Shown one piece after another: positions 53 to 35,628 of a stretch of 63,006 nucleotides of DNA. The stretch comes from a virus. Taxonomy: Duplodnaviria > Caudoviricetes. Within the stretch, counting starts at the first letter, position 1; every line of letters begins with the position of its first letter. The notes under the pieces were generated by a model, which saw only the letters and a list, made by a program, of their open reading frames with translations, ran no database searches and was not told the DNA's origin. The position numbers and the translations under genes are program-made. The stretch is taken from positions 1 to 63,006 of the IMG/VR virus record IMGVR_UViG_3300037840_000064, one strand, 5' to 3'.

Positions 53-295
53 TTATTGTTTCGGCTCATCCTTGGGCTTCTCGGCAATCTGCTTTTGCAA
101 GTCAGCTATCGTTTTTTGCGCCTGTGCCAGTTGTGCCTCTGCCGCCGCCGCCTCATCCAAGGCGCGGTTACGTTGCGCTTGTAGAGCATTAAGCGCCTGC
201 TGTAAGAATGCTGGATCGGCACCTTGCGGGATCGGCTGCTGGGCGAGCGCCGAAGCGGCAAGCAGTGTGAGCATCATTGCGATTATGAGTTGCAT
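53..295 (-). CDS. Small signal-peptide coiled-coil protein downstream of tail fibre genes (possible fibre chaperone or spanin-like protein)
   Basis: MQLIIAMMLTLLAASALA|QQ leader, then heptad-like Ala/Gln/Leu helix; overlaps the stop of the upstream gene. Confidence 0.6.
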   Translation of the reverse strand: MQLIIAMMLTLLAASALAQQPIPQGADPAFLQQALNALQAQRNRALDEAAAAEAQLAQAQKTIADLQKQIAEKPKDEPKQ

Positions 296-1584
296 GTTCC
301 ACCCGTGAGAACGCCGAGCGTGAAAATCAAAGTTTTTGCTTGGTTGACGGTACAGGTCTGCGTCAAGCCCGGCGACAATCCCGCCTGAAATCCTGTACCC
401 ACAATGATGCCGGCACCGCCGTCCGTGGCGATATTTGCATTACCGACCGATAATCCACCGCTCGCCTGAAATCGAAACTTCTCTGTCACGGTTGGCGAGC
501 CGCCGCCAGTCACCGCTGTAAATATGGAGCAATAAGTTCCAAATGCAGTCGTGCTCCAATTTTCAGCCGCCCAACAGTTTATGCGAGCCTTGCTTGTCTC
601 AACTGCCGAGGACGATCCCGCTCCGCTGAAATTAATCCGGCCAATCTCGTCCCCGCTTACCAGCGGAGTAGGACTAGCCTGCGTGCCGTCGTAGCGGAGA
701 AAAGTATTAACGCCAAAAGAGCCAAAAGTTTGTACAGCATGACCCGCAGCGGTAGCATCCAAACCAAATATATTAACGCCCTTGCTTATGCTGGCAAGAG
801 TTAATGCCGTTGGCGTTACTGCATTCTGGTTAATCAGAAACGCGCCAGGTGCAGCATCAAGCCCACTTTGGGGAGTGTCATTGGCATAAGTGCCAAGGTA
901 AAGTGCGCCGTCGTTGAATAGGGTTAGTTGAGGGACTTGCGTAGTGGTTCCCGCCAAAGTCACCTTCATTTCCAGGCGCGTACATTCTGACGAAGTACTC
1001 CAATTGCAATCCGCATAAACCTGATAGCTACCCCGAGCCTCTATCCAGCCGGTAGTGCTGCTGCCGGTTCCGCAAAGCGCTTGATTGCAGCCGCCGCCGC
1101 CGAAGGATACAAGAGTGTCGTTAGCCAAGATTGCGGTCGGCGCTCCCAACGTCCCATTAGCGTGCGCCCCAGTAAACGCCGGAGAATTTCCAGTGCCTGC
1201 GGTATTTGTATTTGCGAGATAGACACTAATTCTCGCGCCGCCCCCGTCTGCCCCCGCCAAGATCAAAACATTGTCGGTTTGAGATATCGGCATAACGGGA
1301 GCAAAACTGATTTTTGGAATAACCGTGCTTGGAACCGAAAAACTGATGCCGCTATCGGTCAACCCCGTTCCCGTGGCGTTGTACCACGGCAAATCTTTCG
1401 GAGTTCCAAGGGTTCCGCCATTGATCGCATTGCAAGTGTACTGCGTTGATGCCGCGCGATTATCGCAAGTCGCGGCAGGCGCAGTCGGCACGATGCAATT
1501 CGGATTCGACGGCCCGCACCCCTGCGCCGCCGCCGGCAGCGCCGAGACAATCAGGAGCGCAAGCGCAAGTAGAATCTTCTTCAT
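283..1584 (-). CDS. Tail fibre/receptor-binding protein with Sec-type signal peptide
   Basis: Start moved to MKKILLALALL (TGATG overlap with upstream stop); Gly/Thr/Ser-rich internally repeated beta-type sequence; located after the main fibre gene. Confidence 0.65.
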   Translation of the reverse strand: MKKILLALALLIVSALPAAAQGCGPSNPNCIVPTAPAATCDNRAASTQYTCNAINGGTLGTPKDLPWYNATGTGLTDSGISFSVPSTVIPKISFAPVMPISQTDNVLILAGADGGGARISVYLANTNTAGTGNSPAFTGAHANGTLGAPTAILANDTLVSFGGGGCNQALCGTGSSTTGWIEARGSYQVYADCNWSTSSECTRLEMKVTLAGTTTQVPQLTLFNDGALYLGTYANDTPQSGLDAAPGAFLINQNAVTPTALTLASISKGVNIFGLDATAAGHAVQTFGSFGVNTFLRYDGTQASPTPLVSGDEIGRINFSGAGSSSAVETSKARINCWAAENWSTTAFGTYCSIFTAVTGGGSPTVTEKFRFQASGGLSVGNANIATDGGAGIIVGTGFQAGLSPGLTQTCTVNQAKTLIFTLGVLTGGTCNS

Positions 1585-1913
1585 CAGACAAATTCCAGAA
1601 TAGTGAGATTGCAGTTTCCGCTCGCGATGGCCTGCCACGCGCAATTGATCTGAAAGTTTCCCTGCGCCATGATCGGCAGCGTCGCTCCGGGGAATAAGGG
1701 AATGCCTTGATTTACGGCAATCGCGCTCCCGGCCGGCGCAAGATAGATGGTCTGCGTCGCACTCGGATTTCCAAACGTAATGCCGCGGCGCTGTGCGTTC
1801 GTCCCGATGACGCTCGCAGTAAGCGCCGTCGTCAGAGCAACCGACGTAAACACCGGACTGGCAATCGGGATTATCTGGTTTTGTTGGATCAGCGGTTCGG
1901 GCATGACGTTCAT
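1584..1913 (-). CDS. Hypothetical small virion-associated beta protein
   Basis: 109-aa ORF between two fibre genes, coupled to the downstream gene. Confidence 0.6.
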   Translation of the reverse strand: MNVMPEPLIQQNQIIPIASPVFTSVALTTALTASVIGTNAQRRGITFGNPSATQTIYLAPAGSAIAVNQGIPLFPGATLPIMAQGNFQINCAWQAIASGNCNLTILEFV

Positions 1914-1965
1914 CCGACTTTCGTTAGGAAAACTCTGTTGTTGTTTGCAGGCTTAAACGCACACA

Positions 1966-3906
1966 TCAACCCATAATTTCCGTCAGCCTCATCGTACCTA
2001 TACCGAAAGTGCCAGAACCAACGTTATTATTGCCATATACAGTGTACGCCTGGCTCGAAGAAACCCCTGGTGCATCGAGAACATCGAATACGCAAGGTGC
2101 CGATACAACACCGGCGCTGTTATTGATACCCACCGCCTGCGGCTCGCCGATAGCAGTCGATGTTCCCCGTCGAACCTGCGCACTTACTTGTGAAACGCTT
2201 GTCCCACTCACACCCGCCGCAGCAACACCGATTGCATTGATCAAAATAAGGTTTGCTGCACTGGTCGGTATAATGCTTGATGTAATGGTCGTAGCGGCCG
2301 CCGTTCCAGTGAGGCTGGTAGCACTGGCCGTCGCAAAGAAAACCGTCTGCACCGGGTCACCGGGTTTTTTGCACGAGGCCGGCGCCAAGCAAAATTGCAG
2401 CGTCGTCGGGGCGGACGCCCATGTCCCTGCCGTTCCCAAGCCCGAAGCATAGTCTGCGTAGCCGAGAATAATCACACTGTCGTTGCTGGTATTGGCCGAC
2501 GTATAAAGAACACCCGCCGTTCCTGATCCAGCGGTTATTCCCGTGCCGCTTTTCTGGATCGTCTCCCAGGCCGTGCACGGAAAGATCGCCGTCGCAGTTG
2601 AACATTTTGCAACCCCCAAAATCGGCGTGCCGCCGTTGTATGCGGCAAATATCCAGATTCGGAACGGGACATTGCTGCTCGACGTTCCGAGCGTCGCACC
2701 GGATGGAATCGTGATACCCAAAGCGCCTTGCGGTATGGCCCAAAGCGGATCGCCGTTCGCCAAGGTGGTATCCCGGAAGCGCAGCGGACCTCCTGAATAG
2801 GTGATAGTCAGTGCGCTCGCACTAGCAACCGCCGCGAGGCTTCCATTGACCGGACCATGTACGTCAAGCCACCACGTCCCCGACGACAAGGCGTTGGTGC
2901 TGATCCACACCCAAGAACCGGATGGAATCGTAATCGAGGTTCCCGACCCAACACCGGGAAAATTATCGTTGGCGTTCGGCGTAATCGTGCAGATGCCAGA
3001 GATCGCGTAAATCCAGAAACCGAATCCGGCCTGCAACGTATTGGCGCGAGGCAGCGTATAGGTGATTGGTCCCGTGCAAATCCTCTGATTCAACTGAAAC
3101 GCGGACGTAACGCTCTGGCTTGTGGAATCCGCAGTCGCAACGAACGTCTGCCGAAGTGTTCCCGCCCCATCATCAGCCAGACCATAGGAACCAACATTCT
3201 CCGTCGCCGCACTGCCCAAACCCAAGTCTGTCCGAGCCGCTGCAATCGTCGGCGCATTAACCACCGGCTGCATCGCCGACGAGACCGTTCCCGCAGGCAG
3301 CGTCGAAATCGCAACCGGAACACATCCCGTCGCATCAAATCCGAGCGCCTGGTTCGCTCGCTGTGCGGCAGCGGGTAACGGCGCGAGACTCCCACAACTA
3401 TCCGAAACCGGAATTGCAATCCCTCGCCCAAATAGCGCGTTCAACTGCTGAATCTGCATCGACAGAAGATCAAGCGCCGCTTCAACCGCAGTCGGGAATG
3501 CTTGCCCCTGATTCGAGCTTACGGTTTGCAGATAGGGCAGCGTCCGCGCGATGGTGATCGTCGTTCCAGACGCGATAGGGGAACCAACGAGAGGGTATGT
3601 GACCGAGCCGCCGAGGCCCCAGATTGCTCCCGGCAGCGGTGCGGTAAGCGTGAGCGTGTATTGCGTGTTCGGCGTAAGCGTCGTCTGGTTGCCGTTCGCG
3701 TCCGTGTAGATCACAGTAATGTCGTTGGAGGCGACGCCGATAAACGGGAACGTGAAATTCGTAATCGAGCCATTGCCGCCGATCACCACGGACGATTGCG
3801 CACTCGTAACTGTCGCGCGCACGTAACCGAGCCACGCCAAGTCGGCAATCTCGCCCAGGACAATAAGGCCGATGAACGCGAGCAGGAGGCGTGCGGCTTT
3901 TTTCAT
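1966..3906 (-). CDS. Tail fibre protein with T7 gp17-like N-terminal attachment domain, preceded by a signal peptide
   Basis: TVTS..GNGSITNFTFPF..ITVIYTD..TITIARTLPYLQ..VEAALDLLSMQIQQL is the podovirus fibre N-terminal pattern; AARTDLGLGSAAT fibre motif. Confidence 0.85.
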   Translation of the reverse strand: MKKAARLLLAFIGLIVLGEIADLAWLGYVRATVTSAQSSVVIGGNGSITNFTFPFIGVASNDITVIYTDANGNQTTLTPNTQYTLTLTAPLPGAIWGLGGSVTYPLVGSPIASGTTITIARTLPYLQTVSSNQGQAFPTAVEAALDLLSMQIQQLNALFGRGIAIPVSDSCGSLAPLPAAAQRANQALGFDATGCVPVAISTLPAGTVSSAMQPVVNAPTIAAARTDLGLGSAATENVGSYGLADDGAGTLRQTFVATADSTSQSVTSAFQLNQRICTGPITYTLPRANTLQAGFGFWIYAISGICTITPNANDNFPGVGSGTSITIPSGSWVWISTNALSSGTWWLDVHGPVNGSLAAVASASALTITYSGGPLRFRDTTLANGDPLWAIPQGALGITIPSGATLGTSSSNVPFRIWIFAAYNGGTPILGVAKCSTATAIFPCTAWETIQKSGTGITAGSGTAGVLYTSANTSNDSVIILGYADYASGLGTAGTWASAPTTLQFCLAPASCKKPGDPVQTVFFATASATSLTGTAAATTITSSIIPTSAANLILINAIGVAAAGVSGTSVSQVSAQVRRGTSTAIGEPQAVGINNSAGVVSAPCVFDVLDAPGVSSSQAYTVYGNNNVGSGTFGIGTMRLTEIMG

Positions 3907-4070
3907 TCTTTGCGATCGCTTTCAGATTTCATGCGATGGTGAGCAAGCCACCCGTGCGGGTGAGGTTCGTTCGGCAGGAAAGGCGCTTTCTCCTTGCGGC
4001 GCGGCCTTACCTTCGCTCGCTGCTTCTGCGGCGCATGGACTGGCGTAATTGGCGGGCGAATATCGGCCAC
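3903..4070 (-). CDS. 55-aa basic hypothetical protein (below ORF-track cutoff)
   Basis: GTG start overlaps the upstream TAG and its TGA overlaps the fibre ATG (MADIRPPITPVHAPQKQRAKVRPRRKEK...). Confidence 0.5.
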   Translation of the reverse strand: MADIRPPITPVHAPQKQRAKVRPRRKEKAPFLPNEPHPHGWLAHHRMKSESDRKE

Positions 4071-7000
4071 TAGTGGGCAACCGTGCTTTGCAAGATCGCG
4101 TGCTTGGCGTCCAATGCCTGTTTCATGATCTCTGGATATTGCATCAAGATCACGGTTCGCGCCATATCCCTTGAGCCGTCCACAGCCGTTTTCAACTGTT
4201 CTTGCCGGATTTGCTGCGGGATAAGATTGAAGCCCGGATTCGACACCATGGCATTGACTCGCATTTTGGCGACGCGACCGGCGATTCGGGTGAAGTCATC
4301 GTATTGCTGATCGGTCAAAGTCACGCCGCGAATCTTCCTCTCCGGCCTAGCGGGATAGTATTCGGCCTTCTGTAGCGCGATTGTTGCCGGATCGTTTACC
4401 GCAGGCGACCACGACATCATCGACCCGCCGCGCATCGGTTCCCCCCATAGGTCGCGGACAGGGAAAAGCTGCTCGCTCATGCCCGGAATATGGGCGCGTA
4501 AGGCATCCATTTCCGAGCGCACGGAACGCCATACCGGATCGGTCATGGACGCGATTTGGCGAAGGCCGATGGAGAACGGCAGAAAATCCATCGACATATT
4601 GCGCAGGTACTTCATGCCGCTGCGGTCCCAATTGCGCGCTGCATCAATAAACGAGGAAAGCCCGCGCATCCAGGTTTCGTCGGCAACAACCTCCGAGAAT
4701 CCGAACAGGAGTGCGGCAGCGCCTTGCGCCAGACCCTTCTCGCTCATCGTATGACCGATTTCGACCATATCGGCGACGCCGGCAACGAGAGGACCAAGTG
4801 CGCTCAGATATTTCCGATAGGGGATATACTCGCCGCCAATCTTGAGGCTGTACGGCTTCCACCCCGTCATTTCCATCACTTCGCGCTGCTTCGGATCGGA
4901 AGGACCGCCCCCCGTCATGATGCCTTGCATGGTGAGGCCCATCACGCTCAATCCGAGCCCGGTCCCCACCATGATCTGCCCATATTGCCGCTGCATCGCG
5001 ACCGGCCCGTTACGACCCAACAGATTATTGCGCGCGTCTGAGGACAAGAACGCCAAAGGCGTGCGCTCTACAAAGCCCTCGCGGAGAATGTTCGCACCTA
5101 TCTGCACGAACGGCATAACGAGTTTCAAGGCGATGTGGCTATTGACCCACTTCTGAAAATGGTACTGCCCCGAATCGAAGGTCGGACGCTTCATCAGCAC
5201 CATTTCGAGCGCGGTATTATGTGCTTCTGCCATCGCCGAGTCCGGCGGCTTGCTCACAAACTCGGCCATGTGCTGATTGAATTCATCGGTGCCGGGCTCG
5301 AAGTCTTCCTTTATCGCGTCGCGAAAGGCCATCGCGGAGATTTCGGATTCGTAGTTCATGCCGTAGTGCATGGTGTGGATCGCGGCGACCGAGCGCGACG
5401 GCGTTTCCAGAACGTAGCCTACCTTGCCGGGAATCTGTTGCGGACGGTAGGCGATTTCCGAATTGAAAAGATCGACGCCGGACGGATCGCCCTTCATCAC
5501 AGATACGCCGGTTTTCAGCGCACTATATGATGGCATTATTCCTTCGCGAGCGCCGTAGAGCATTCCGTAAAGTCGCGGCACAATCTCGCCTGCAACGATT
5601 CGATCTTCCGGCTTGATCGCCCCGACTGCCGAAAGCATCCGCCCCGCAAGAGCAGACGCAGCGGTTTCAGGAACGGCCCGCCATAACTGCAAAACCTGAT
5701 TGCCGATGGAGTATCCAACGTGAGTTAGTGGTCCCGAAATTAGATTGTTGATGACGTAGCTGATAACACCGTCGCGGACCTTCTGCCCGAGCAGTTTTTG
5801 CGAGTCCTGAATCCCTCGCGCGACTTGTGCCGGTGTGCTTGCAGCACGGCCTAGCGTCATTTCCTGCTGTAGTTGAAAAAGTGTCTTGCCCGTCGCATCC
5901 TTCAAAACCGCAGCGAGTTCTTCCGCGTTCTGTGTCGCGCCCTTCATCGTGCGGAACGCGCGAAGCCCACGGCCCATTTCCGCCGTAATGCCGGACAATG
6001 TTTCGTGTGCCATCAAAAATCTTTGTCGCGCTTCCGCGTAGGCGACTTCATCCGTGCCTTGCATGGTCCGGCTGACTTCGGCGGCAAGTTTGGTAAACGT
6101 ATCGCGCATTAACCAGATACGCGCGGCAAGCGGCACACCATCCTCGACGGACATCTGCCGCAGGCGGTCCATGTTGTTTGCGACGATCCGCGGATCGACG
6201 CCCATCGCGTCCGCCAAATCCATGATGGACTGATCGGACACGACGCCTCGCGTGGCGGCGTCTAACTGTGCAGCATTTTCGTGGTAGAGCGTTCGGATTG
6301 CGTCGTTGACGGCGGCGGGAGTATCGAGGTTTTCCAGCCGGATATTTCCGACCTTATCCATCTTCGCCGCCGGCAGTGTGTCCAGCGGAACGTGAGGCCC
6401 GATGGGAAGCGGCTCTATGGTTCCTGCGCTGCCTTCTCGTGTTCGTAGCCCAGCGCCTTGCGGTACAATGTTGCCGCCGCCCTGTGGCTGCGTGCCGAGT
6501 TCCGCGCTGCCAGCGCCGCCTGGACCGATAGTGTCGGGTCTGCCGCGATCTTCTCCCAATGAGATTGGTTCGCTTGCGCTAGTTCCAATTTTCTCTGCAC
6601 TTCCTCGATGCTCATCCGCTATGTCCTTGGGCAGTTCCGCTCTGGCCCTGGCATCCTCGTTACCGATACGATCCGCCGCCCGCTCCGCTTCGTGCGGCTC
6701 GGTCAGAACGGCGTCCGACTCATGAATATCCTGCAAATCGGGCCGTTTGGCAATCTCGGGCGCAATCACGGTCCTTTGAGGCTGTTCGGCAAGCATCCGG
6801 TCGAAAACACCCCGAATATCGTCACTGATCGGAGCGCCTAAGCCCCTGATGGTCTGGTAGATATTCATCATCCATTGCTTGACCTTGGCGAATACGCCGG
6901 CAAGCTGCGGAGAGGGGGCTATGCCTTCCCGAAGATATTGCTCAAATCCCCTGGCGAACTTCTCATGGGCCTTGGTTGCCTTGATCTTGGCCGCCCGTGA

Positions 7001-24664: not shown

Positions 24665-25225
24665 TTAGGAGGCGACTTTGTAGTTCGAGCCGTAGAACGC
24701 CAAGGTGCTCTGCGCGTCGTCGTCGCCCAGCGTCACGTCCGAAGTCACGGTTCCGGTCGTGGCATTCGAGCCCGCGACCGCATAGTTCAACTGCACGAAT
24801 CGCGGCAATGCCTGGCCGGTCTTGCGCATCGGCCAATCGAAGGATGCGATTCGGGTATTCGCCGTGAGCAGCGCCGCGGCGATGGTGTCGGTCTGGATGT
24901 AAGTGACGAACGTCAAATCCGACCGCAGGCCGGAGACGTGAGAGGTCGCATTTTCCGGCGCACCCTGGAACTGAATCTGCAACGACGTGAGTGTTGCAAA
25001 CGCGGTCCCGACATTGACCACGACGCGGGGCGTGCCTTCGCCCTTGCCGATGCCCAAATCCTCGCCGAAGTAGGTCTCGTTGACCGAGAAGATCGCCGAA
25101 GGCGACGGCGTGTAGGTCGTCGTCAGGCTTTGCCCGGTCAACTGATCGTAGAAGTTGGTCGATTGCGCCGACGCCGTGATGGCCTGCGCGGAAGAAAACT
25201 GTAGTGCCAGATCGAGCATACCCAT
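24665..25225 (-). CDS. Capsid cement protein (BPP-1 Bbp16-like)
   Basis: MLDLALQFSSAQAITASAQSTN..DLGIG..RFVQLNYAVAG..TTGTVT pattern; directly after the capsid gene. Confidence 0.8.
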   Translation of the reverse strand: MGMLDLALQFSSAQAITASAQSTNFYDQLTGQSLTTTYTPSPSAIFSVNETYFGEDLGIGKGEGTPRVVVNVGTAFATLTSLQIQFQGAPENATSHVSGLRSDLTFVTYIQTDTIAAALLTANTRIASFDWPMRKTGQALPRFVQLNYAVAGSNATTGTVTSDVTLGDDDAQSTLAFYGSNYKVAS

Positions 25226-25256: not shown

Positions 25257-26291
25257 TTAGACCACGCGGCTTTCGGTATCGAGAATCTGATCGACCACGC
25301 CGATTGCGATGTTGCGGAAGTTCACAATCGGGCGGCCGGCGTAATCTTCCGGACGCAACAATACATTTTTATCTCTGATGGCCTGGATGTCCATGTACTC
25401 CCGCGAGGTACGATCGCAGTAGAATTTCAGGCGGATCGAGGGAGCGACGCGATCCGGCGCGTCCGTCTTGACGATGCCGGAGACCATGCGGCCGGCGGTC
25501 GGAAGCCGGACAACCGACTTCGACATGATCGCGAAGATGTCCGGGGGAGTCGGGCCGGCGAGCCCTGCGGTCGTGGTGTCGAAGTTCGCCATGCGGATGA
25601 CGTAGCGCCAGTCCTCGATGGCGAGACCGCCGTTGCGCGAGAAGTAGGACGTATAGGCTTCGTAGCGCGCCGTGCCGTTCGACGTGAGGGCCGGAACCAA
25701 GTCGCCCTTGTTCTCGAAGATCAATCCGGCTTTCGTGCCATCCGGATAAATCTCGTAACAGGTCTGGTCGCCCCAGCCGATGAGCCAGATCGACGTATTC
25801 GACGATCCGGTGCCGCCGGCATCGAACACATTGACGCCGTTCGGGGTATTGGCGATTGCGGAGAAATACGTCGAGAAACCGGAGAACTGTTCCGGCGTCG
25901 TCCAGGCATTGCCGTAAACGAGGAAACCGGTCCACTGCTGGGACATGCCCTCCATATGGGCCACGTCCTCTTTCTCGCGGTTGGCGTTGGTATTGCCGCC
26001 AAGATCGGCGAGGCGCTTGTCGATCTGCGAGTAGGCGTCCAGCATTGCCATGCCGAACGTGATCTGCGCGGCACTCGACTTGGTGTAGCCGACGCCTTGG
26101 TTGAAGCGGCGCAGCGTGCCCTTGGGCAGCGCAGTGCGCAGCGTGACAACGTGGCCGGTTGTGAGGTTACCCTTGACCAGCGGGGCATCCTCGTCGATCT
26201 CGTTGCATTGAGACATCAATTCGGCCATGTCGGCGATCTTGCCGCCAGGGTCCATGCGACGGCCGACATCGGCCAGGGTCAAGGAAGCCAT
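25257..26291 (-). CDS. Major capsid protein (BPP-1 Bbp17 / epsilon15 gp7-like)
   Basis: LTLAD..AELMSQCNEI..RTALP..RRFNQG..NTSIWLIGWG..GLAIEDWRYVIRMAN..DQILDTE motifs. Confidence 0.92.
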   Translation of the reverse strand: MASLTLADVGRRMDPGGKIADMAELMSQCNEIDEDAPLVKGNLTTGHVVTLRTALPKGTLRRFNQGVGYTKSSAAQITFGMAMLDAYSQIDKRLADLGGNTNANREKEDVAHMEGMSQQWTGFLVYGNAWTTPEQFSGFSTYFSAIANTPNGVNVFDAGGTGSSNTSIWLIGWGDQTCYEIYPDGTKAGLIFENKGDLVPALTSNGTARYEAYTSYFSRNGGLAIEDWRYVIRMANFDTTTAGLAGPTPPDIFAIMSKSVVRLPTAGRMVSGIVKTDAPDRVAPSIRLKFYCDRTSREYMDIQAIRDKNVLLRPEDYAGRPIVNFRNIAIGVVDQILDTESRVV

Positions 26292-29519: not shown

Positions 29520-31364
29520 TCACTGCCCGCCTCCCGCTGGCGGCGCAGCGCCCGTGCCGCCGCCGCTCAGCATCAATTGCAACGCATTCTGGCCGCCGCC
29601 CGTATCCGTTTGTGACAGATTTTGTGCGGCGGATGCAATGGCCGGAGTGACCTTTTCGGCAACGTGTGCCTGTTGCGCCGCCTGTTGGGCTTGCGTTCGC
29701 TGCCCGCGAATCTGCTGGATCGTCGCCTGATCGTTCCAATCCTCCGGCGGAAACTCGACGGCCTCGCCATAGTCGCGGATGTATTTGTCTGCGTTGATGT
29801 TGTCGAGAACGCCGGGCATCGCCGCTTCCATGCGGCCCGCCATAACCATCGTGCGCTCCATGCCGGCGGTTTTTGCGGCCTGCTGGATCAATGCGAGCTT
29901 GGACACGAATTTGACCTGGATCGGAACACCTTGCAGCGAGGCCGGCTTTGGCGGGATCAATCCGCGGCGATTCATGATCGAAACGATTCGGGTAAGTCCA
30001 ATGCCATCCTCGCGAAGATTGCGCTCGATGACAGGACCAAGCCGCAACAGTTTCTCGCCGCGGCGCTCTTGCAATTCCAACTCGTTGCGCGGCTGCACGC
30101 CTTCCATCTGCGAGATCATTTCAAACACGTCGTTGGCGAACCATCGCTCGATGCGCTTCTGCAACGTGACGATCTTGTTCTCGATGAATTCCACAAAGCG
30201 CGGATCGACCGTATAAGCGGCTTTCATGCCGGCGTTCTGCGCCAGGTTCGGGACGTATGTGACCTTGCCGGGAAGCGTCGAAGCCGGTTCGTTCTTCAAC
30301 GTCGCGTCCGCGAGCATCGGCGGACGAACGCCCTTGTCGATGGCCTCGGCCTCGCGCCGCGTCATCTGGTTTAACTGACTGATGTCCGGCAGCGCATCCA
30401 TGCCGAGTCCGCGACCATAGGGCTCGCTTGATCGTTGCGTCCAAGGCGCATACATGAACGGCTTTTCGCGGTAGCCCCGCACCGACAACGGCTGTGGCGT
30501 GTTGAGACCGCGCAGCCAATACGTCTCGCGATAGGCATAACCGCCCGGCACCACGCCGAGTCTCGGCTTCTGTCCGTACTGATTCGCGGGAAAATTCGGT
30601 TCGATTGAGTGCGCGACGATGAATTCGGTTTCGAGATTCGCGCCCTTGGTATTCCAAAGTTGTGCAACGTCGCTGCCCGCGACAGCCTTTGGCCCGAATC
30701 GCTGCACGATGGAGCGCACGGTCAGAACGAATTCCCGATCAAATGTCTCAATGGAATTGTCCGACCCCGCCGCCCCAAAATATTCCCCGGCGCACGGCAC
30801 TTCGCAATTGATGATTCGCTCGCGATTCTCGTAGATCAACATCGGCGCGGTTCCGAACGTGATCTGATCCTCGTAATACTGATGTTTGCGGTCGTAGTAA
30901 TTTGATCCCGCCAGAACATCGTAAGTGATCTGCTGAAACTCGTTGAGCCATCGCTTACCGGCGGTATCCAGTTCGACGCCTTCGGGCGCTTCGAACTTGA
31001 ACCAGACTTTTGTCGGCGATGACAGGCCGTCCATCATACCGGCGGCACAGACGCCGATTGCTTGGGTCGTTGTCGAATCCACGACGTTCTGATTGATCGG
31101 CAACCCGCGCGTCATGTTGTTGGGCGTGATGACCCAATAATAGCGCCGCGGCAGCGCCTGCTCGGCTATCGCGCCCCAATGCATCCACCATGGCGTGCGC
31201 CAGTTGCGCATTCCAAGGAGCACCTGTTCGAGATAATTGCGAAAGTCCTCCCAATCCTGATTGGAAGTCCAGGTCTTGCCGTCGATGATCGCGGGCGTGA
31301 GCGCCAACAGCGACGCGCTGGCGTTCTCATAATAGACTTCGGCGCGTTCGGCGGTGAGCGCCAT
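29520..31364 (-). CDS. Portal (head-tail connector)
   Basis: VVDSTT..CAAGMMDGLSSP..WF..SNYY..FGTA..PYGRGLGMDALPD..ERRGEKLLRLGPV T7/BPP-1-type portal motifs. Confidence 0.93.
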   Translation of the reverse strand: MALTAERAEVYYENASASLLALTPAIIDGKTWTSNQDWEDFRNYLEQVLLGMRNWRTPWWMHWGAIAEQALPRRYYWVITPNNMTRGLPINQNVVDSTTTQAIGVCAAGMMDGLSSPTKVWFKFEAPEGVELDTAGKRWLNEFQQITYDVLAGSNYYDRKHQYYEDQITFGTAPMLIYENRERIINCEVPCAGEYFGAAGSDNSIETFDREFVLTVRSIVQRFGPKAVAGSDVAQLWNTKGANLETEFIVAHSIEPNFPANQYGQKPRLGVVPGGYAYRETYWLRGLNTPQPLSVRGYREKPFMYAPWTQRSSEPYGRGLGMDALPDISQLNQMTRREAEAIDKGVRPPMLADATLKNEPASTLPGKVTYVPNLAQNAGMKAAYTVDPRFVEFIENKIVTLQKRIERWFANDVFEMISQMEGVQPRNELELQERRGEKLLRLGPVIERNLREDGIGLTRIVSIMNRRGLIPPKPASLQGVPIQVKFVSKLALIQQAAKTAGMERTMVMAGRMEAAMPGVLDNINADKYIRDYGEAVEFPPEDWNDQATIQQIRGQRTQAQQAAQQAHVAEKVTPAIASAAQNLSQTDTGGGQNALQLMLSGGGTGAAPPAGGGQ

Positions 31365-31365
31365 G

Positions 31366-31581
31366 TCAGCCCAGCAATTGCGAGTTCGTCGTGGTGGGCG
31401 CTACAAGCGTACCCTGCGCGCTGGTCTTGGTCGTGGCGTCGGCAAGCGCCGCGGCTTTGCTGGTTTGATTGGTTCCGGCGGCCGTCACGGTGGCGTTCGC
31501 CATGGTGGGCGGTATTGCCGCAGCCGGAATTGCCGGCGGCGGGGGTGGCGTTTCAGAAGGAGGGGAGAGCATTGCACCCAT
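31366..31581 (-). CDS. Small Pro-rich virion assembly protein (T7 gp7.3-like position)
   Basis: MGAMLSPPSETPPPPP...LLG C-terminus; immediately upstream of the portal gene. Confidence 0.65.
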   Translation of the reverse strand: MGAMLSPPSETPPPPPAIPAAAIPPTMANATVTAAGTNQTSKAAALADATTKTSAQGTLVAPTTTNSQLLG

Positions 31582-31592
31582 TGTGATTTTCC

Positions 31593-31907
31593 TCAGATGA
31601 CGAGCAGGCTGACACCTGCCGCAAAGCCAAGTACGATGGAAGCTGCGACGAATGCGTAGATTAACGGCGTCGGCATCTTCATTAGTTGCACGTAATAGGA
31701 CAGATAGGTCATGCCCATCGCGGCGATCGAGCAACGCCAGGCGAAGGGATTGCCGACAATCAATCCAGCATACATTACAGCGACCAGATAAATCGCACTA
31801 TTGACGATGACGGCAACAACCAGCGACCAATACAGATCGCGCGCTTGCGTGGGGTGCGGGTCAACGCCCATGGCTTTTTCGTAATCGACTGGACGGTGTG
31901 CGTTCAT
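31593..31907 (-). CDS. Three-TM membrane protein
   Basis: Three hydrophobic stretches; GGAGG RBS. Confidence 0.65.
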   Translation of the reverse strand: MNAHRPVDYEKAMGVDPHPTQARDLYWSLVVAVIVNSAIYLVAVMYAGLIVGNPFAWRCSIAAMGMTYLSYYVQLMKMPTPLIYAFVAASIVLGFAAGVSLLVI

Positions 31908-31910
31908 AAT

Positions 31911-32117
31911 CTACCTCCCAAGCGGATCGTACTCGGCTGTAAACATCGGCCGCCGCGGTTTCAATTCCTGTTCGAGCATCCACAGTTGCGGGCCATTCAA
32001 GCTCTGTAACGCCTTTGACGCAACCTCGCGAGTCACATGATCGCGGCGCATGATGTAGCCGATGGCGCGCTCGCGCTGCGCTTGATCGTCATCGGGTTTG
32101 GTAGGCGAGGGGATCAT
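31911..32117 (-). CDS. Small protein ending in the same AEYDPL motif as TerL
   Basis: Start at MIPSPTK; C-terminus MFTAEYDPLGR. Confidence 0.6.
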   Translation of the reverse strand: MIPSPTKPDDDQAQRERAIGYIMRRDHVTREVASKALQSLNGPQLWMLEQELKPRRPMFTAEYDPLGR

Positions 32118-32907
32118 ATTCCGCTTGCCATGAGACTTGCGATTTCCCGGTAGTCCACTGATCGGCCGGCCGCACGCACGCAACGCTTAACCCGGACATG
32201 ATGAGGTATCTCGTGTCGTCCATCAAGTGATCGGCCTGCCCATCCTTGATCCGACCATGCTCGTCGCGCTGGTAGAACCGATATTCCTTGATCCAGTTGA
32301 CCAGGGTCCGAAAGACTTTCAGGCGTCCGGTTGTGAGTCGTTGCCACACGGCGACGATACCCGATTCAGGTCCGGTCATCGTATTATCCGCAGGCGTCAA
32401 ATTCAAGCCCAGATCGTTGACGTAGATTGAAAACAACGCCTGACCGTCCTTTTGTCCACGTCCGCGCGCTGCCGGATCGATGACTCCGGGAATCCATAAG
32501 CCACGAGCACGAATTGCTGCGGCATGGATCGGCGGTTCGGCCTGCCCCCGATAGTGTTCGCCGTACAGATACACCACATCGTTGTCGCGGTCCCACGCGC
32601 CCCACAGCGCGGCGGTTCGCTTCCAGCCCACGTCGAGCGCATAGCACTGCGGCATCCAATCGGGGATGATGAACGGATCGCAGAGGATTTCGGATTCGGG
32701 TACCGGATAGACCGCGCCTTGACCGAGGGATGGTTTTCCGAGTGAGCGCGCTTCGAATTCGTGCGGCGGGATGCGGGATTTTTCTTCCGCGATCATTTCG
32801 GGGGTTAGGTGCGGAACGTCATTCCAGCCGGCCATCACGACAAAGCGGGAACGTTTGGCGATGACTTCTTCGGCTGGGCCGGATGAGAGCGAGGGAGCGT
32901 CAGTCAT
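32089..32907 (-). CDS. terL: Terminase large subunit, C-terminal nuclease half (P22 gp2-like)
   Basis: MAGWNDVPHL..EARSLGKPSLGQGAVYP..ALDVGW..IDPAARGR..DHLMDDTRY RNase H-like motifs. Confidence 0.9.
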   Translation of the reverse strand: MTDAPSLSSGPAEEVIAKRSRFVVMAGWNDVPHLTPEMIAEEKSRIPPHEFEARSLGKPSLGQGAVYPVPESEILCDPFIIPDWMPQCYALDVGWKRTAALWGAWDRDNDVVYLYGEHYRGQAEPPIHAAAIRARGLWIPGVIDPAARGRGQKDGQALFSIYVNDLGLNLTPADNTMTGPESGIVAVWQRLTTGRLKVFRTLVNWIKEYRFYQRDEHGRIKDGQADHLMDDTRYLIMSGLSVACVRPADQWTTGKSQVSWQAEYDPLAYQTR

Positions 32908-33073
32908 GCAGTGACCGAAACAATAGCCACGTTTCATCACCGGGGCGCGATGCAGGATCGAATTTCATTTCGCACCAATGTCCGACCGGAATATCGTCAA
33001 GTTCGGGGCGATTACCGATGTGGATGCCGCATTGGAGGTTTCCCGCGCGTTCCCAATTCTCAAGACCAGCCAT
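32900..33073 (-). CDS. 57-aa hypothetical protein between the terL halves (below ORF-track cutoff)
   Basis: MAGLENWERAGNLQCGIHIG...; TGATG-coupled start; stop overlaps the terL-C start region. Confidence 0.5.
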   Translation of the reverse strand: MAGLENWERAGNLQCGIHIGNRPELDDIPVGHWCEMKFDPASRPGDETWLLFRSLHD

Positions 33074-33387
33074 CACCAAGCCTCGACTTGTAATCCGACG
33101 CGGCCATATGCAATCGCCTCAGGTGCGGTGATGATAAGAACGTTGCGAAAGTTCACGATTGGCTGGCCCGCATAGTCATCCGGGCGCAACAGTATGTTCA
33201 TATCGCGAATGGTTTTGATGTCCACAAATCGCCGAATTGTCCGATTGCTATAGAATATCGGCCGGATGACTGGCGTAAGCAGCGCTCGCACCGGCATCAA
33301 ATTTGCCGCCTTGACAAGGGCGGGTGCTGCGAGCGCTGCGCCAAGTCCAAACAAAAAACCACGACGAGAAGAAACGATTTTGCTCAT
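33073..33387 (-). CDS. Twin-arginine leader fused to a copy of the major capsid C-terminal segment
   Basis: SRRGFLFGLGAALAAP leader; 30/48 ungapped identity to the capsid C-terminus by manual count. Confidence 0.75.
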   Translation of the reverse strand: MSKIVSSRRGFLFGLGAALAAPALVKAANLMPVRALLTPVIRPIFYSNRTIRRFVDIKTIRDMNILLRPDDYAGQPIVNFRNVLIITAPEAIAYGRVGLQVEAW

Positions 33388-33734
33388 TGAGTTCCCGCCT
33401 CAAGTTTCGCCACTACCCGCCAGCCGCTAGAGTCCTCTAAGATGCTGTTGGATTCTTCAACCATTTGCGCAAACGCAGTCACGAATGGCTGGCCGTATTT
33501 TACCTCTAATTCCTCGAAAGTCGAACAGAGCGGCGGATCGATGCTTGGAATGGGATAAACATTGTAGCCGTTGACACCCGGAACTTCCGCCCAACTGATT
33601 CTCCACAAATTTCTCGAATCGCCGCCATCAAGCACATTCATGGCATTCAGTGCTTTAGCCTTCGGCAGTCCGATAAGCGCAATCGCTGCACTACCAAACA
33701 GCCAATTAAAAAACTTTCGCCGAGTTCCGTTCAT
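33384..33734 (-). CDS. Twin-arginine leader protein with weak capsid-like segments
   Basis: TRRKFFNWLFGSAAIALIGLPKAKA leader; ATG abuts the terL-N stop. Confidence 0.7.
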   Translation of the reverse strand: MNGTRRKFFNWLFGSAAIALIGLPKAKALNAMNVLDGGDSRNLWRISWAEVPGVNGYNVYPIPSIDPPLCSTFEELEVKYGQPFVTAFAQMVEESNSILEDSSGWRVVAKLEAGTQ

Positions 33735-34529
33735 CTAAAACTCCGATTCCCCCGGCAACCGCCCGCCAGGAAGGAACGCCTGCACTACATCCGACATGCC
33801 TTCGAGCGGCGTAAAGGTCAAGAGCGAGAGACCGCGTTTGGTCATGAGCCGAATCGACGCCTCAGTGTAAATTTCTAGGGGAGGTTCCTCGTCTCCCCAG
33901 AAAACGTCCTTTGCGGTTCCCTCGAACGATCCGCGTCCCTGCTCATACGATTTGATGCCGAGGCTCGACCAGCCACCAAATTGAGACTTGATCGCAGCCG
34001 TATCAATAAAATCCGGGATGCCGCGCTTCCAGGTTATGTCGCCGATGTCCTCTGCGGGAATCAGTCCCGTACCCGCGACGGTCTTAGATCGCCCGTTCCA
34101 TTTGACCGGACCAAACAACGTCTCGCGCTGAATAATATCGCGCGTCGTTTCGTTGGTCTTACCGGCGGCCCACGCCTCAATTGGTCGATCAAACCGATAG
34201 CCCGGCCACCAAACAGGATAGCGGCCAGTCAGATGCAGTGTAAGTTCGTAACCGCCGAGGCCAAAAGTTTTTCCTATTCGATTGGCGCACAGAGCTAATC
34301 TTTCACGATGCGGTGACCCATCGCAACCTTCGGGACACCATGTCTCGATTGGATCGTGCTGACCGCCTGCCGCAAAGAACGCCATGTGGCGGTCGTAAAG
34401 CTCGCGCCGCAATGGCCCATCATTAGGATAGAGGGTGTAGAGCCTACGGAACGGCGCCTGCTTCGCTATGTTCTCGCGAAGCTTCGTGCTCAATAATTTC
34501 CGGCCCTCCGGGGAGAGCGTCGAGAGCAT
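33735..34529 (-). CDS. terL: Terminase large subunit, N-terminal ATPase half
   Basis: Walker A ANRIGKT, Walker B VFWGDEEPP, motif III LTFTPLEG; start uncertain (34529 or 34613). Confidence 0.9.
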   Translation of the reverse strand: MLSTLSPEGRKLLSTKLRENIAKQAPFRRLYTLYPNDGPLRRELYDRHMAFFAAGGQHDPIETWCPEGCDGSPHRERLALCANRIGKTFGLGGYELTLHLTGRYPVWWPGYRFDRPIEAWAAGKTNETTRDIIQRETLFGPVKWNGRSKTVAGTGLIPAEDIGDITWKRGIPDFIDTAAIKSQFGGWSSLGIKSYEQGRGSFEGTAKDVFWGDEEPPLEIYTEASIRLMTKRGLSLLTFTPLEGMSDVVQAFLPGGRLPGESEF

Positions 34530-35094
34530 CGGCAAGAGCGCGTTGATCTTCGACACTGAGACCTGCGAAGAAATTGTAATTATTCGTCGTCGCTGGAACT
34601 TTATCGGGTTCATCGTCCTGCGGCAAGCCGCCGAGATTCTTCAAGAGCGTGAAATTGGCTTGATTCTTGTCGTGCAGCTTGATCTTCGGACGCCCCTCGT
34701 CGTCCCATTCGATTGAGGCCAAGGCTTCGCTCAGTTCCGGCGGCAGCGCCGTGATGTCCTTGAGGGTGTAGCGGCCAGTGCGGTTGCCGTCTTGGTCTAG
34801 GACAGGCTCGAAATAGTCGGGGAGCCGAGCCTTGCCAACGCGATCAATCCGCATCACGACAGTCGCCAAGCGCACGTCCCGGAACGCAATGGCTTCCTCG
34901 AACAGATGTTTGATGCGCTTTTTGACGACGGGAGAATTTGCCAGACGGCGCGCGTTGTGCTTGTTGCCTGGATAACCGGCTTTCTCGTAGCCTACTTTTC
35001 GGGCATTACGGCGCACATTTGGGTCGGAACTCAGCAGAGCTTCGACGACCTCTCGCGCAAAAATCTCATGCGCTGGATTGTGCAGTGCACCCAT
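34444..35094 (-). CDS. terS: Terminase small subunit
   Basis: LHNPAHEIFAR..EKAGY..ARRLANSPVVKKRI HTH; KIKLHDK motif; upstream of terL. Confidence 0.85.
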   Translation of the reverse strand: MGALHNPAHEIFAREVVEALLSSDPNVRRNARKVGYEKAGYPGNKHNARRLANSPVVKKRIKHLFEEAIAFRDVRLATVVMRIDRVGKARLPDYFEPVLDQDGNRTGRYTLKDITALPPELSEALASIEWDDEGRPKIKLHDKNQANFTLLKNLGGLPQDDEPDKVPATTNNYNFFAGLSVEDQRALADALDALPGGPEIIEHEASREHSEAGAVP

Positions 35095-35127
35095 GACGCT
35101 GATTCTTTTCGAGTCCGCTTTGCCTCA

Positions 35128-35514
35128 TTATCGCCCCGGATTATATCGTTCCCGCTGAACTCTGCGCAAGGGGATGGCGGCGGATTCTTGGGGCTGGTCG
35201 GATTCGGCTTCGTTGGCTGGCGGAAGGTTGGCTTCGGCTTCGGCGGCGCGTTGGGCGAGGATGTCGTTCGTTACGCCGTCTACTGGCGTTGATCCCTCGT
35301 TATGCGGCTGGTAGTGTGTAGGCAACGTCACTTGAGCGAGAATTTGAGACTGCATCATCCCGATCAGCGGCGCCCTGCCCTTACTCAATCGGTCGAGCAC
35401 CACGCGCACAAACGTTGCGTTGTCCATGCCTTCATCGGCCGCCATTTCGCCGATCCATGCGAGTTGTTCGTCCGTGACGCGGACCATGATTCGCTTGGTT
35501 AAGTCGGCGCTCAT
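35128..35514 (-). CDS. Ribbon-helix-helix DNA-binding protein
   Basis: KRIMVRVTDEQLAWIGEMAADEGMDNATFVRVVL. Confidence 0.7.
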   Translation of the reverse strand: MSADLTKRIMVRVTDEQLAWIGEMAADEGMDNATFVRVVLDRLSKGRAPLIGMMQSQILAQVTLPTHYQPHNEGSTPVDGVTNDILAQRAAEAEANLPPANEAESDQPQESAAIPLRRVQRERYNPGR

Positions 35515-35530
35515 TGGGCCTTTGCGGAAT

Positions 35531-35628
35531 CAGGACGGTCGCTCAGTATCCCAAACGACCGTCCTGCAAGCTGGGGGCTTATCACCACGTAACGCGCACA
35601 ATATTGCCCCTTACGCTACAACCGTCAA
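35531..35628 (-). promoter_or_regulatory. Putative late promoter followed by an 11-bp perfect hairpin
   Basis: Minus strand TTGACG-N17-AATATT (35628-35600); inverted repeat CAGGACGGTCG/CGACCGTCCTG at 35531-35566. Confidence 0.55.

Follow-up and report, generated by a model that had tools for sequence, protein, structure and literature searches.

Small phage genes that join twin-arginine-type leaders to pieces of the major capsid protein, found in the gap of a split terminase gene

Overview

This report concerns a pair of small genes in the phage record IMGVR_UViG_3300037840_000064 (Duplodnaviria; Caudoviricetes). The whole record of 63,006 bases was analysed and is called the window; its completeness is 100% by the CheckV estimate. 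The two open reading frames (ORFs), ORF1 and ORF2, are genuine accessory genes: the terminase gene of this phage is naturally split, and they occupy its gap as cargo. ORF1 joins a leader of the twin-arginine translocation (Tat) type to a homologue of the C-terminal part of the major capsid protein (MCP). The same leader heads a family of small proteins, several of which carry other pieces of MCPs, drawn from two capsid protein types, and the combination is apparently a recurrent, undescribed gene design. A first-pass annotation, made from the letters of this DNA, had described both ORFs as Tat-type leaders fused to fragments of the phage's own capsid protein, and both lie on the minus strand exactly where it placed them.

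ORF1 is a leader joined to a capsid protein fragment

BLASTP aligned ORF1 aa 37-85 (amino acids, aa) with MCP aa 282-330 without a gap (30/49 identities, E 4e-20), which bears out the ungapped match to the capsid C-terminus in the first-pass annotation, with the count of 30/48 given there corrected to 30/49. A profile of 28 MCPs of the clade reported ORF1 at E 7e-20, and Pfam GP7 matched it over profile positions 241-299 of 313 at E 4.5e-5 (22.9 bits, below the 27-bit cut-off). Judged from these alignments, the likeness is far beyond chance, and ORF1 is homologous to part of a capsid protein without being one itself. The MCP is closely homologous to the capsid proteins of BPP-1 and epsilon15, matching PDB 3J4U at E 1.4e-91 and 3J40 at E 1.2e-84. 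In its AlphaFold2 model, with a mean predicted local distance difference test score (pLDDT) of 79.6, the region consists of a strand (287-292), a helix (294-306), a long loop and a second strand (328-332). ORF1 aa 37-85 is homologous to the C-terminal strand-helix-loop-strand of the epsilon15 gp7/BPP-1 MCPs (PF20911; 3J40, 3J4U) with the invariant residues kept, although ORF1 holds only about 50-65 of the 344 residues, and an HK97-like fold or shell is impossible for it.

The N-terminus of ORF1 reads SSRRGFLF and continues with a hydrophobic stretch (best 13-aa Kyte-Doolittle window 1.92) and the AxA-like site VKA. With ORF1, ORF2 and their close homologues left out of its construction, a leader profile picked out ORF1 from 13,328 six-frame segments (E 2.5e-14, 52 bits). 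Three homologues (P0002-P0004) share 88-92% identity with ORF1 and are each 104 aa long, and two shorter relatives (P0005, P0006) have the same leader and different capsid pieces. No match to ORF1 was obtained by tblastn against 50,697 phage records, no longer protein with likeness to ORF1 was found at E 0.001, and the best scores in the ESM Atlas (0.80-0.82) were under the useful range. Pattern scans of IMG/VR with ORF1 and ORF2 returned no relatives, where records very near the window possibly fell outside the scan.

The leader defines a family of small proteins

The consensus of the family is RRxFLxGL..APAIVRA-xSLMPV, or in its fuller form xRRxFLxGLxxLxAAPAIVRA-xSLMPV(K/R), after which the members diverge completely. 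The leader combines an RR motif with a moderately hydrophobic stretch; a basic residue then precedes an AxA-like site (VRA or VKA), and the xSLMPV element follows. Nearly all members are ORFs of about 50-150 aa, annotated at source as 'hypothetical protein'. When scans were seeded with the leader, 222 of 561 pattern matches in metagenome contigs were confirmed as relatives and the best 80 retained; in species genomes 17 of 97 were confirmed, 13 of these 17 being labelled Alphaproteobacteria or its orders or genera. The RR pair is invariant in all 92 aligned family proteins, a frequency that says little because the set was picked with two leader patterns.

More telling is the DNA beneath the conserved peptide. 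Among 75 distinct DNA versions of P-A-I-V-R-A-x-S-L-M-P-V, the full range of synonymous codons is represented, and the codon differs for 60% of identical residues. Identical residues written in differing codons indicate selection on the peptide and not on the DNA, and a DNA-level repeat element behind the conservation of the leader was ruled out by the same codon usage. Pfam and NCBIfam hold no family for the group beyond weak TAT_signal matches: PF10518 reached E <= 0.05 in 11/92 members and TIGR01409 in 4/92.

A chromosomal subfamily of 100-114 aa (..FYHSLD..AQGWLPPY..) occurs on alphaproteobacterial chromosomes of metagenome-assembled genomes, with 1-3 copies per genome in five genomes (L135, L157, L166-L172, L175, L179 and others); its mature part matches nothing. 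Two longer proteins are also headed by the family leader, at L104 2327-3397 (356 aa) and L115 1854-2414. The 356-aa protein means that the leader is not confined to small proteins; both were excluded from the family counts.

Capsid pieces recur across the family and in two capsid protein types

The mature part of each family protein was compared with its own locus in six frames, matches of E < 1e-8 being counted as strong. Strong matches to the MCP gene were obtained in L086, in L098/99/100 and in L140/144/146. The sole strong match to anything else came from L158, where the partner was another copy of the same type of small protein. All remaining matches were at noise level (E 0.02-0.04), and the portal and other genes were unmatched. 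Pfam assigned the MCPs of L098 (E 7e-28) and L140 (E 8e-29) to the P22-coat type, which has no sequence likeness to the GP7 type of the window. At these six loci, found through the leader alone, the leader ORF lies immediately upstream of the P22-coat-type MCP gene and carries the N-terminal 57-63 residues of the cognate coat protein at 51-63% identity (E 2e-17 to 1e-23). Comparable leader and capsid-fragment genes, whose occurrence in other phages the first-pass annotation had left to be searched for, thus do occur elsewhere, including with a second capsid family.

Profiles of the clade MCPs matched 17 of 94 family proteins, 12 with GP7-type and five with P22-coat-type pieces; identical copies had been removed from this set, as had six loci: two MCP genes, two encoding long proteins and two whose starts were unclear. 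The pieces come from several parts of the MCP: the C-terminus (the ORF1 group, L086 and L204), the N-terminus (L102, P0005, P0006, L098, L140, L112 and L131), aa 106-131 (L088) and aa 147-187 (ORF2 and P0007). L150 and P0005 hold two pieces in non-colinear order, and L102 lies above the Pfam GP7 cut-off at 29.5 bits. The profile-negative proteins may derive from other capsid families or have no capsid origin. Separately, a leaderless 98-aa ORF downstream of the portal gene at L194 (5388-5684) closes with a segment that has 42% identity to the MCP C-terminus (E 7e-4); the C-terminal module may be fused to other N-termini too.

Origin and selection

The tree of the C-terminal block, with 53 columns, is weakly resolved. 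The L204 fragment nests in the MCP subclade that holds the MCP of its own phage (support 100/96), and ORF1 with its three homologues forms a clade of its own (99/99) on a long branch outside the subclade of the window's MCP. These branches are well supported and require the GP7-type fragments to have arisen at least twice; with the P22-type cases counted, the sequences point to at least three origins. The ORF1 piece shows 49-62% identity to all of the 40-odd clade MCPs sampled, and at 61% the window's own MCP is not specially close. Against its own MCP gene the piece has a DNA identity of 65%, with a proportion of differing synonymous sites (pS) of 0.727, which is saturated, and of differing nonsynonymous sites (pN) of 0.229; it is therefore an old copy and no fresh duplicate. 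The description of these genes as fragments of the phage's own capsid protein accordingly holds for homology to the MCP and not for special closeness to the copy in this phage. A diversity-generating retroelement was also considered as a source of the copy and ruled out: the record has no RVT_1, the DNA identity is 65%, and there is no adenine bias, with 11 of 51 mismatches falling at adenines of the MCP gene.

Comparisons between phages show that the capsid fragments are under purifying selection. For the family gene, L098 compared with L140 gave pN 0.30 and pS 0.79 (0.35 and 0.81 in the mature part), against pN 0.077 and pS 0.645 for the neighbouring MCP, from which it follows that the family gene evolves faster than the MCP and far from neutrally. 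Over 24 codons, ORF1 and the L086 fragment differ at pN 0.164, compared with 0.244 for the same MCP block of both phages. The MCP-invariant residues R294, D301, R306, D307, N309 and L311, together with the near-invariant R297 and L312, are kept in all six aligned fragment proteins. Neutral decay, the outcome that the first-pass annotation had set against its own reading, does not describe these genes, pN being below a saturated pS both between L098 and L140 and between ORF1 and the MCP gene. For ORF1, a twin-arginine leader joined to a capsid piece in a real, selected gene is hence supported.

ORF2 has a weaker resemblance to the capsid protein

ORF2 begins GTRRKFFN, followed by the hydrophobic window WLFGSAAIALIGL (13-aa Kyte-Doolittle 2.01) and the AxA-like site AKA. 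Two capsid echoes had been proposed for its mature part. The first (NVLDGG..NLWRISW..YNVYP) was recovered marginally: BLASTP against the MCP gave E 0.007, hhalign of ORF2 aa 23-64 with MCP-profile aa 146-188 gave a probability of 48% (E 1.9e-4, 39 columns), and the clade MCP profile reported ORF2 at E 2.5e-3 and its 93% homologue P0007 at E 2.5e-4. The second (AQMVEESNSILED) was reported by no tool. The stretch of the first echo also matches the W..W..G.GY.VY repeat of giant repeat proteins (44 proteins, E <= 0.001), a repeat that is presumably fibronectin-III-like. P0007 is present on four contigs, and contigs of runs X3, X5 and X6 contain ORF2 itself with an identity of about 91-99%.

The genes lie in a cargo site between the halves of the terminase

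The features of the region are collected in Table 1. ORFs of 292 and 283 aa are, on homology, the ATPase and nuclease halves (TerL-N and TerL-C) of one terminase large subunit. When the unsplit terminase of EBPR podovirus 1 is aligned with them, its residues 1-238 correspond to TerL-N and 235-467 to TerL-C, and the junction is complete. Throughout the clade (window 32089-34613; loci L006-L085) the gene is divided at the linker joining 'FLPGG' to 'RFVVMAGW'. The first-pass annotation was written without this terminase context, in which ORF1 and ORF2 appear as cargo between the halves of a split gene.

Table 1. Features of the window discussed in the text. Positions are those of the window.
Feature	Positions	Strand	Basis or remark
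Terminase small subunit	34444-35094	-	Pfam Terminase_2 E 2.7e-6
TerL-N, predicted ATPase half of terminase large subunit, 292 aa	33735-34613	-	PHROG 31467 E 6e-66; PHROG 2 (terminase large subunit) E 3e-6
ORF2, 116 aa	33384-33734	-	Generic Tat-like leader and mature part with marginal MCP match
ORF2 leader, aa 1-28	33651-33734	-	Read from sequence
ORF2 aa 24-63, possible MCP-like stretch (MCP aa 147-187)	33546-33665	-	hhalign, clade profile
ORF1, 104 aa	33073-33387	-	Family leader and MCP C-terminal fragment
ORF1 leader, aa 1-27 SRRGFLFGLGAALAAPALVKA, then ANLMPV	33307-33387	-	Leader-profile match
ORF1 aa 37-85, homologous to MCP aa 282-330	33133-33279	-	BLASTP 30/49, E 4e-20
ORF3, 59 aa	32900-33079	-	ORF overlapping ORF1 stop and TerL-C start
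TerL-C, predicted nuclease half of terminase large subunit, 283 aa	32089-32940	-	Pfam Terminase_6C E 2.5e-7; PHROG 5653 E 2e-15
Portal	29520-31364	-	Downstream of terminase genes
MCP, 344 aa, GP7 (epsilon15/BPP-1) type	25257-26291	-	Pfam GP7 E 1e-90
MCP aa 282-330, segment copied in ORF1	25302-25448	-	BLASTP and AlphaFold2 model

The gap is filled by ORF1, ORF2 and ORF3, with starts and stops that overlap or abut. TerL-N ends in FLPGGRLPGESEF and a stop codon that abuts the ATG of ORF2, and the start codon of ORF1 overlaps the ORF2 stop (ATGA). ORF3 has no Pfam or PHROG match and a single homologue, at the same position in another locus (L017 1440-1625; 38% identity, E 1e-7 in a small database), the cargo of which is otherwise unlike that of the window. 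An intron in the terminase gene was ruled out, with no Rfam match at E 1 within 32000-35000, as was an intein, since stop codons separate the ORFs. Promoter-like and terminator-like sites in 31500-35600 were at shuffle level (2 against a shuffle mean of 2.0, and 4 against 4.4), and blastn of 32000-34700 against the 50,697 phage records gave two short terminase matches and nothing more.

Among 80 IMG/VR loci with a relative of TerL-N, TerL-C is also present in 76, and ORF1 and ORF2 are in none. Many relatives encode the two halves as separate ORFs a few bases apart, in different frames and free of cargo, and some have both in one frame. In 13 of the 76 loci with both halves, gaps of 215-4167 nucleotides (nt) hold unrelated ORFs, some of which (180-194 aa) are HNH-like by eye. 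Two phages whose MCP is 99% identical to that of the window (L006/L183, L008/L184) are without ORF1 and ORF2. On these same contigs TerL-N is just 87-88% identical to that of the window; compared by sequence, this is mosaicism of packaging against head modules. One variant on a metagenome contig keeps ORF2 (42 differences in 473 nt) and has 32890-33399, with ORF1 and ORF3, replaced by 566 other letters, and in another 578 letters replace 32812-33909; the replacement joints were seen in contigs of runs X3 and X5. From this pattern of presence, absence and replacement among relatives it follows that the terminase gap is a cargo hotspot and that ORF1 and ORF2 are separable modules.

Several other loci of the clade carry unusual material. 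In L012 (2228-6531), TerL-N is followed by more than 4 kb of cargo, within which lie a pair of paralogous 83-aa ORFs, an ORF of the leader family with 'SLWEIGW' (compare 'SIWLIGW' in the MCP), and ORFs of 690 and 374 aa that are by eye glycosyltransferase-like and DNA methyltransferase-like. The largest cargo, 4.2 kb in L009 (5819-9986), has several ORFs, some by eye transposase-like or HNH-like. In L001 (2468-4339, MW202478.1) an annotated 623-aa terminase has an extra block of about 140 residues in its nuclease half, intein-like by eye with a Cys at its start and 'HNC' at its end.

What the proteins may do

Three possible roles had been put forward in the first-pass annotation: a decoy for capsid-sensing defences, a tether of proheads to the membrane and interference with the assembly of rival phages. 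Our preferred reading is that these proteins are envelope-targeted capsid mimics that compete, as decoys or competitors, for a factor recognising the MCP; we would put its probability at roughly 35%. The twin-arginine-type leader would send the short mature part to the Tat translocon, so that it ends up at the inner membrane or in the periplasm. Among members borne by phages, this mature part is made of MCP pieces that keep the capsid-invariant residues, and it could act as a mimic, competing for whatever recognises the MCP; the likeliest candidate would be a capsid-sensing defence of the host or some component of a related phage. That interaction would then be placed or sequestered at the cell envelope by the leader. 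We favour mimicry because it fits the rapid turnover of the genes, their location in a hotspot, the variety of the pieces and the retention of MCP-invariant residues.

A number of observations weigh against this interpretation. The weakest point is topology: known capsid sensors are cytoplasmic, and a periplasmic mimic is hard to reconcile with them. The Tat assignment is also softer than the motifs suggest. Pfam TAT_signal reported ORF1 at E 0.017 (15.5 bits, below the 22.7-bit cut-off) and did not match ORF2. An E value of 1e-8 for the ORF2 leader came from a profile that contained ORF2 itself, and the leader profile built without it left ORF2 unreported even at E 10, so that its leader is Tat-like in the generic sense alone. 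Of the Tat-like leaders read in the first-pass annotation there accordingly remain, in both ORFs, the motif, the hydrophobic stretch and the AxA-like site, with membership of the leader family for ORF1. The MCP likeness of ORF2, as aligned here, is marginal. The MCP pieces come from many parts of the protein, some of them buried-looking in the model, and are a poor fit to mimicry of one surface. By the two profiles, 77 of the 94 family proteins carry no MCP piece, and the chromosomal subfamily has ordinary cellular neighbours and no longer relative in the five genomes. Finally, no tyrosine integrase was found in the phage record, which together with the position among late packaging genes argues against expression from a prophage.

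The profile-negative and chromosomal members would be readily accommodated if the family consisted of fast-evolving small exported proteins patched together from any DNA, with functions unrelated to capsids and the MCP pieces as leftovers. The non-colinear pieces in P0005 and L150 and the fast turnover of the cargo fit this too, and we regard it as a possible, if somewhat unlikely, explanation. It sits poorly with the self-locus comparison, in which every strong match save that of L158 was to the MCP gene, and with the fragments themselves, which keep MCP-invariant residues and are under at least as much constraint as the corresponding MCP block. The genes could instead act on the phage's own head assembly, the fragment pairing with full-length MCP or with a capsid decoration protein before or without export, and the leader tethering capsomers or proheads to the inner membrane or carrying a partner across as a Tat hitchhiker. 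Translational packing among head and packaging genes means that the proteins would be made together with the MCP, and in L098 and L140 the family gene adjoins the coat gene. The BPP-1 capsid offers a possible point of contact: in the part of its description available to us (PMC3863775), both termini of the MCP are exposed outside, the N-terminal loop augments the sheet of the cement protein, the C-terminal loop of the cement protein contacts both terminal loops of an MCP, and the C-terminal proximal loop, while ordered in hexamers, lacks order at the penton channel. These cement-protein statements concern BPP-1; in the window, the 186-aa gene adjoining the MCP gene (24665-25225) has PHROG 427 (function unknown) as its sole match. 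The relatives with a 99% identical MCP and neither ORF show, however, that the genes are dispensable for assembly, and binding was shown by no tool result: the predicted complex of the MCP (28-row alignment) with mature ORF1 (aa 28-104) scored 0.00, which is no answer and evidence neither way. We consider a role in assembly unlikely.

That the genes are decaying, non-functional remnants of capsid genes with leader-like starts arisen by chance strikes us as highly improbable. The failure to find ORF1 in IMG/VR relatives and the absence of ORF1 and ORF2 from the closest terminase relatives are what decay would produce, but the intact 104-aa orthologues at 88-92% identity, the selection on the leader as protein, a pN well below saturated pS, the recurrence of leader-fragment fusions in two MCP families and the overlapping or abutting starts and stops of ORF1-ORF3 are not. 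A broader version of the mimicry reading, in which many phages of soil Alphaproteobacteria export short peptides of their own capsid protein as a self-derived identity tag and do so as a general strategy, seems to us quite doubtful. Mimicry at the envelope would there disarm capsid-recognising immunity, for example by dragging a sensor to the Tat translocon, or would exclude or signal to kin phages; were it true, the hypervariable leader-family members would for the most part be pieces of other capsid families. An explanation outside all of those given here is about as doubtful.

Comparison with known systems

ORF1 and ORF2 resemble the moron-type accessory genes of phage structural operons in being small, having a signal or membrane segment, lying between essential late genes and varying in presence among close relatives. 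HK97 gp15 and lambda Bor and Lom are, we take it, morons of this kind that act in superinfection exclusion at the envelope. We know of no moron-type exclusion protein built from capsid pieces. Ltp of Streptococcus phage TP-J34 is a further comparison, being, in the accessible part of its description, an envelope-located superinfection-exclusion protein. In the phage studied here, moreover, no integrase was found.

The leaders share with Tat signal peptides (PF10518, TIGR01409) the S/T-R-R-x-F-L motif and a mildly hydrophobic stretch, and likewise have a basic c-region residue and an AxA-like site. They differ in scoring below the curated cut-offs, and the xSLMPV strongly conserved in the family after the predicted cleavage site is foreign to a generic signal. 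The split terminase recalls Aeromonas phage Aeh1, where nrdA is reportedly split by insertion of a homing endonuclease: in both, an essential enzyme gene is cut at a domain linker with unrelated ORFs between. The cargo of the window, however, consists of leader proteins and includes no endonuclease, and many of the split relatives are cargo-free. A decoy made from MCP pieces is conceivable, since short pieces or domains of MCPs can be defence targets: the Gol peptide of T4 gp23 is said to activate Lit, and CapRel reportedly senses the MCP. These sensors are cytoplasmic, though, and no such defence is linked to phages of the leader family. In the literature covered, mostly outside subscription journals and supplements, nothing was found on capsid fragments tagged with signal peptides or Tat leaders, and nothing specific on the split terminase of this clade.

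Implications

Even on the dullest reading, the data describe an unannotated family of small leader-bearing proteins with a motif selected as protein, a clear case of gene birth from pieces of capsid genes, and a terminase clade encoded in two pieces with the gap between them serving as a cargo hotspot. The Tat-type leader would represent an unexplored link between late functions of phages and the Tat pathway of the host. If the proteins are indeed capsid mimics, they would form a new class of phage accessory protein, a compact and recurrent device that turns pieces of the most conserved virion protein against whatever recognises it, and the pieces carried by the family would amount to a catalogue of the capsid segments that matter to the partner recognising them.

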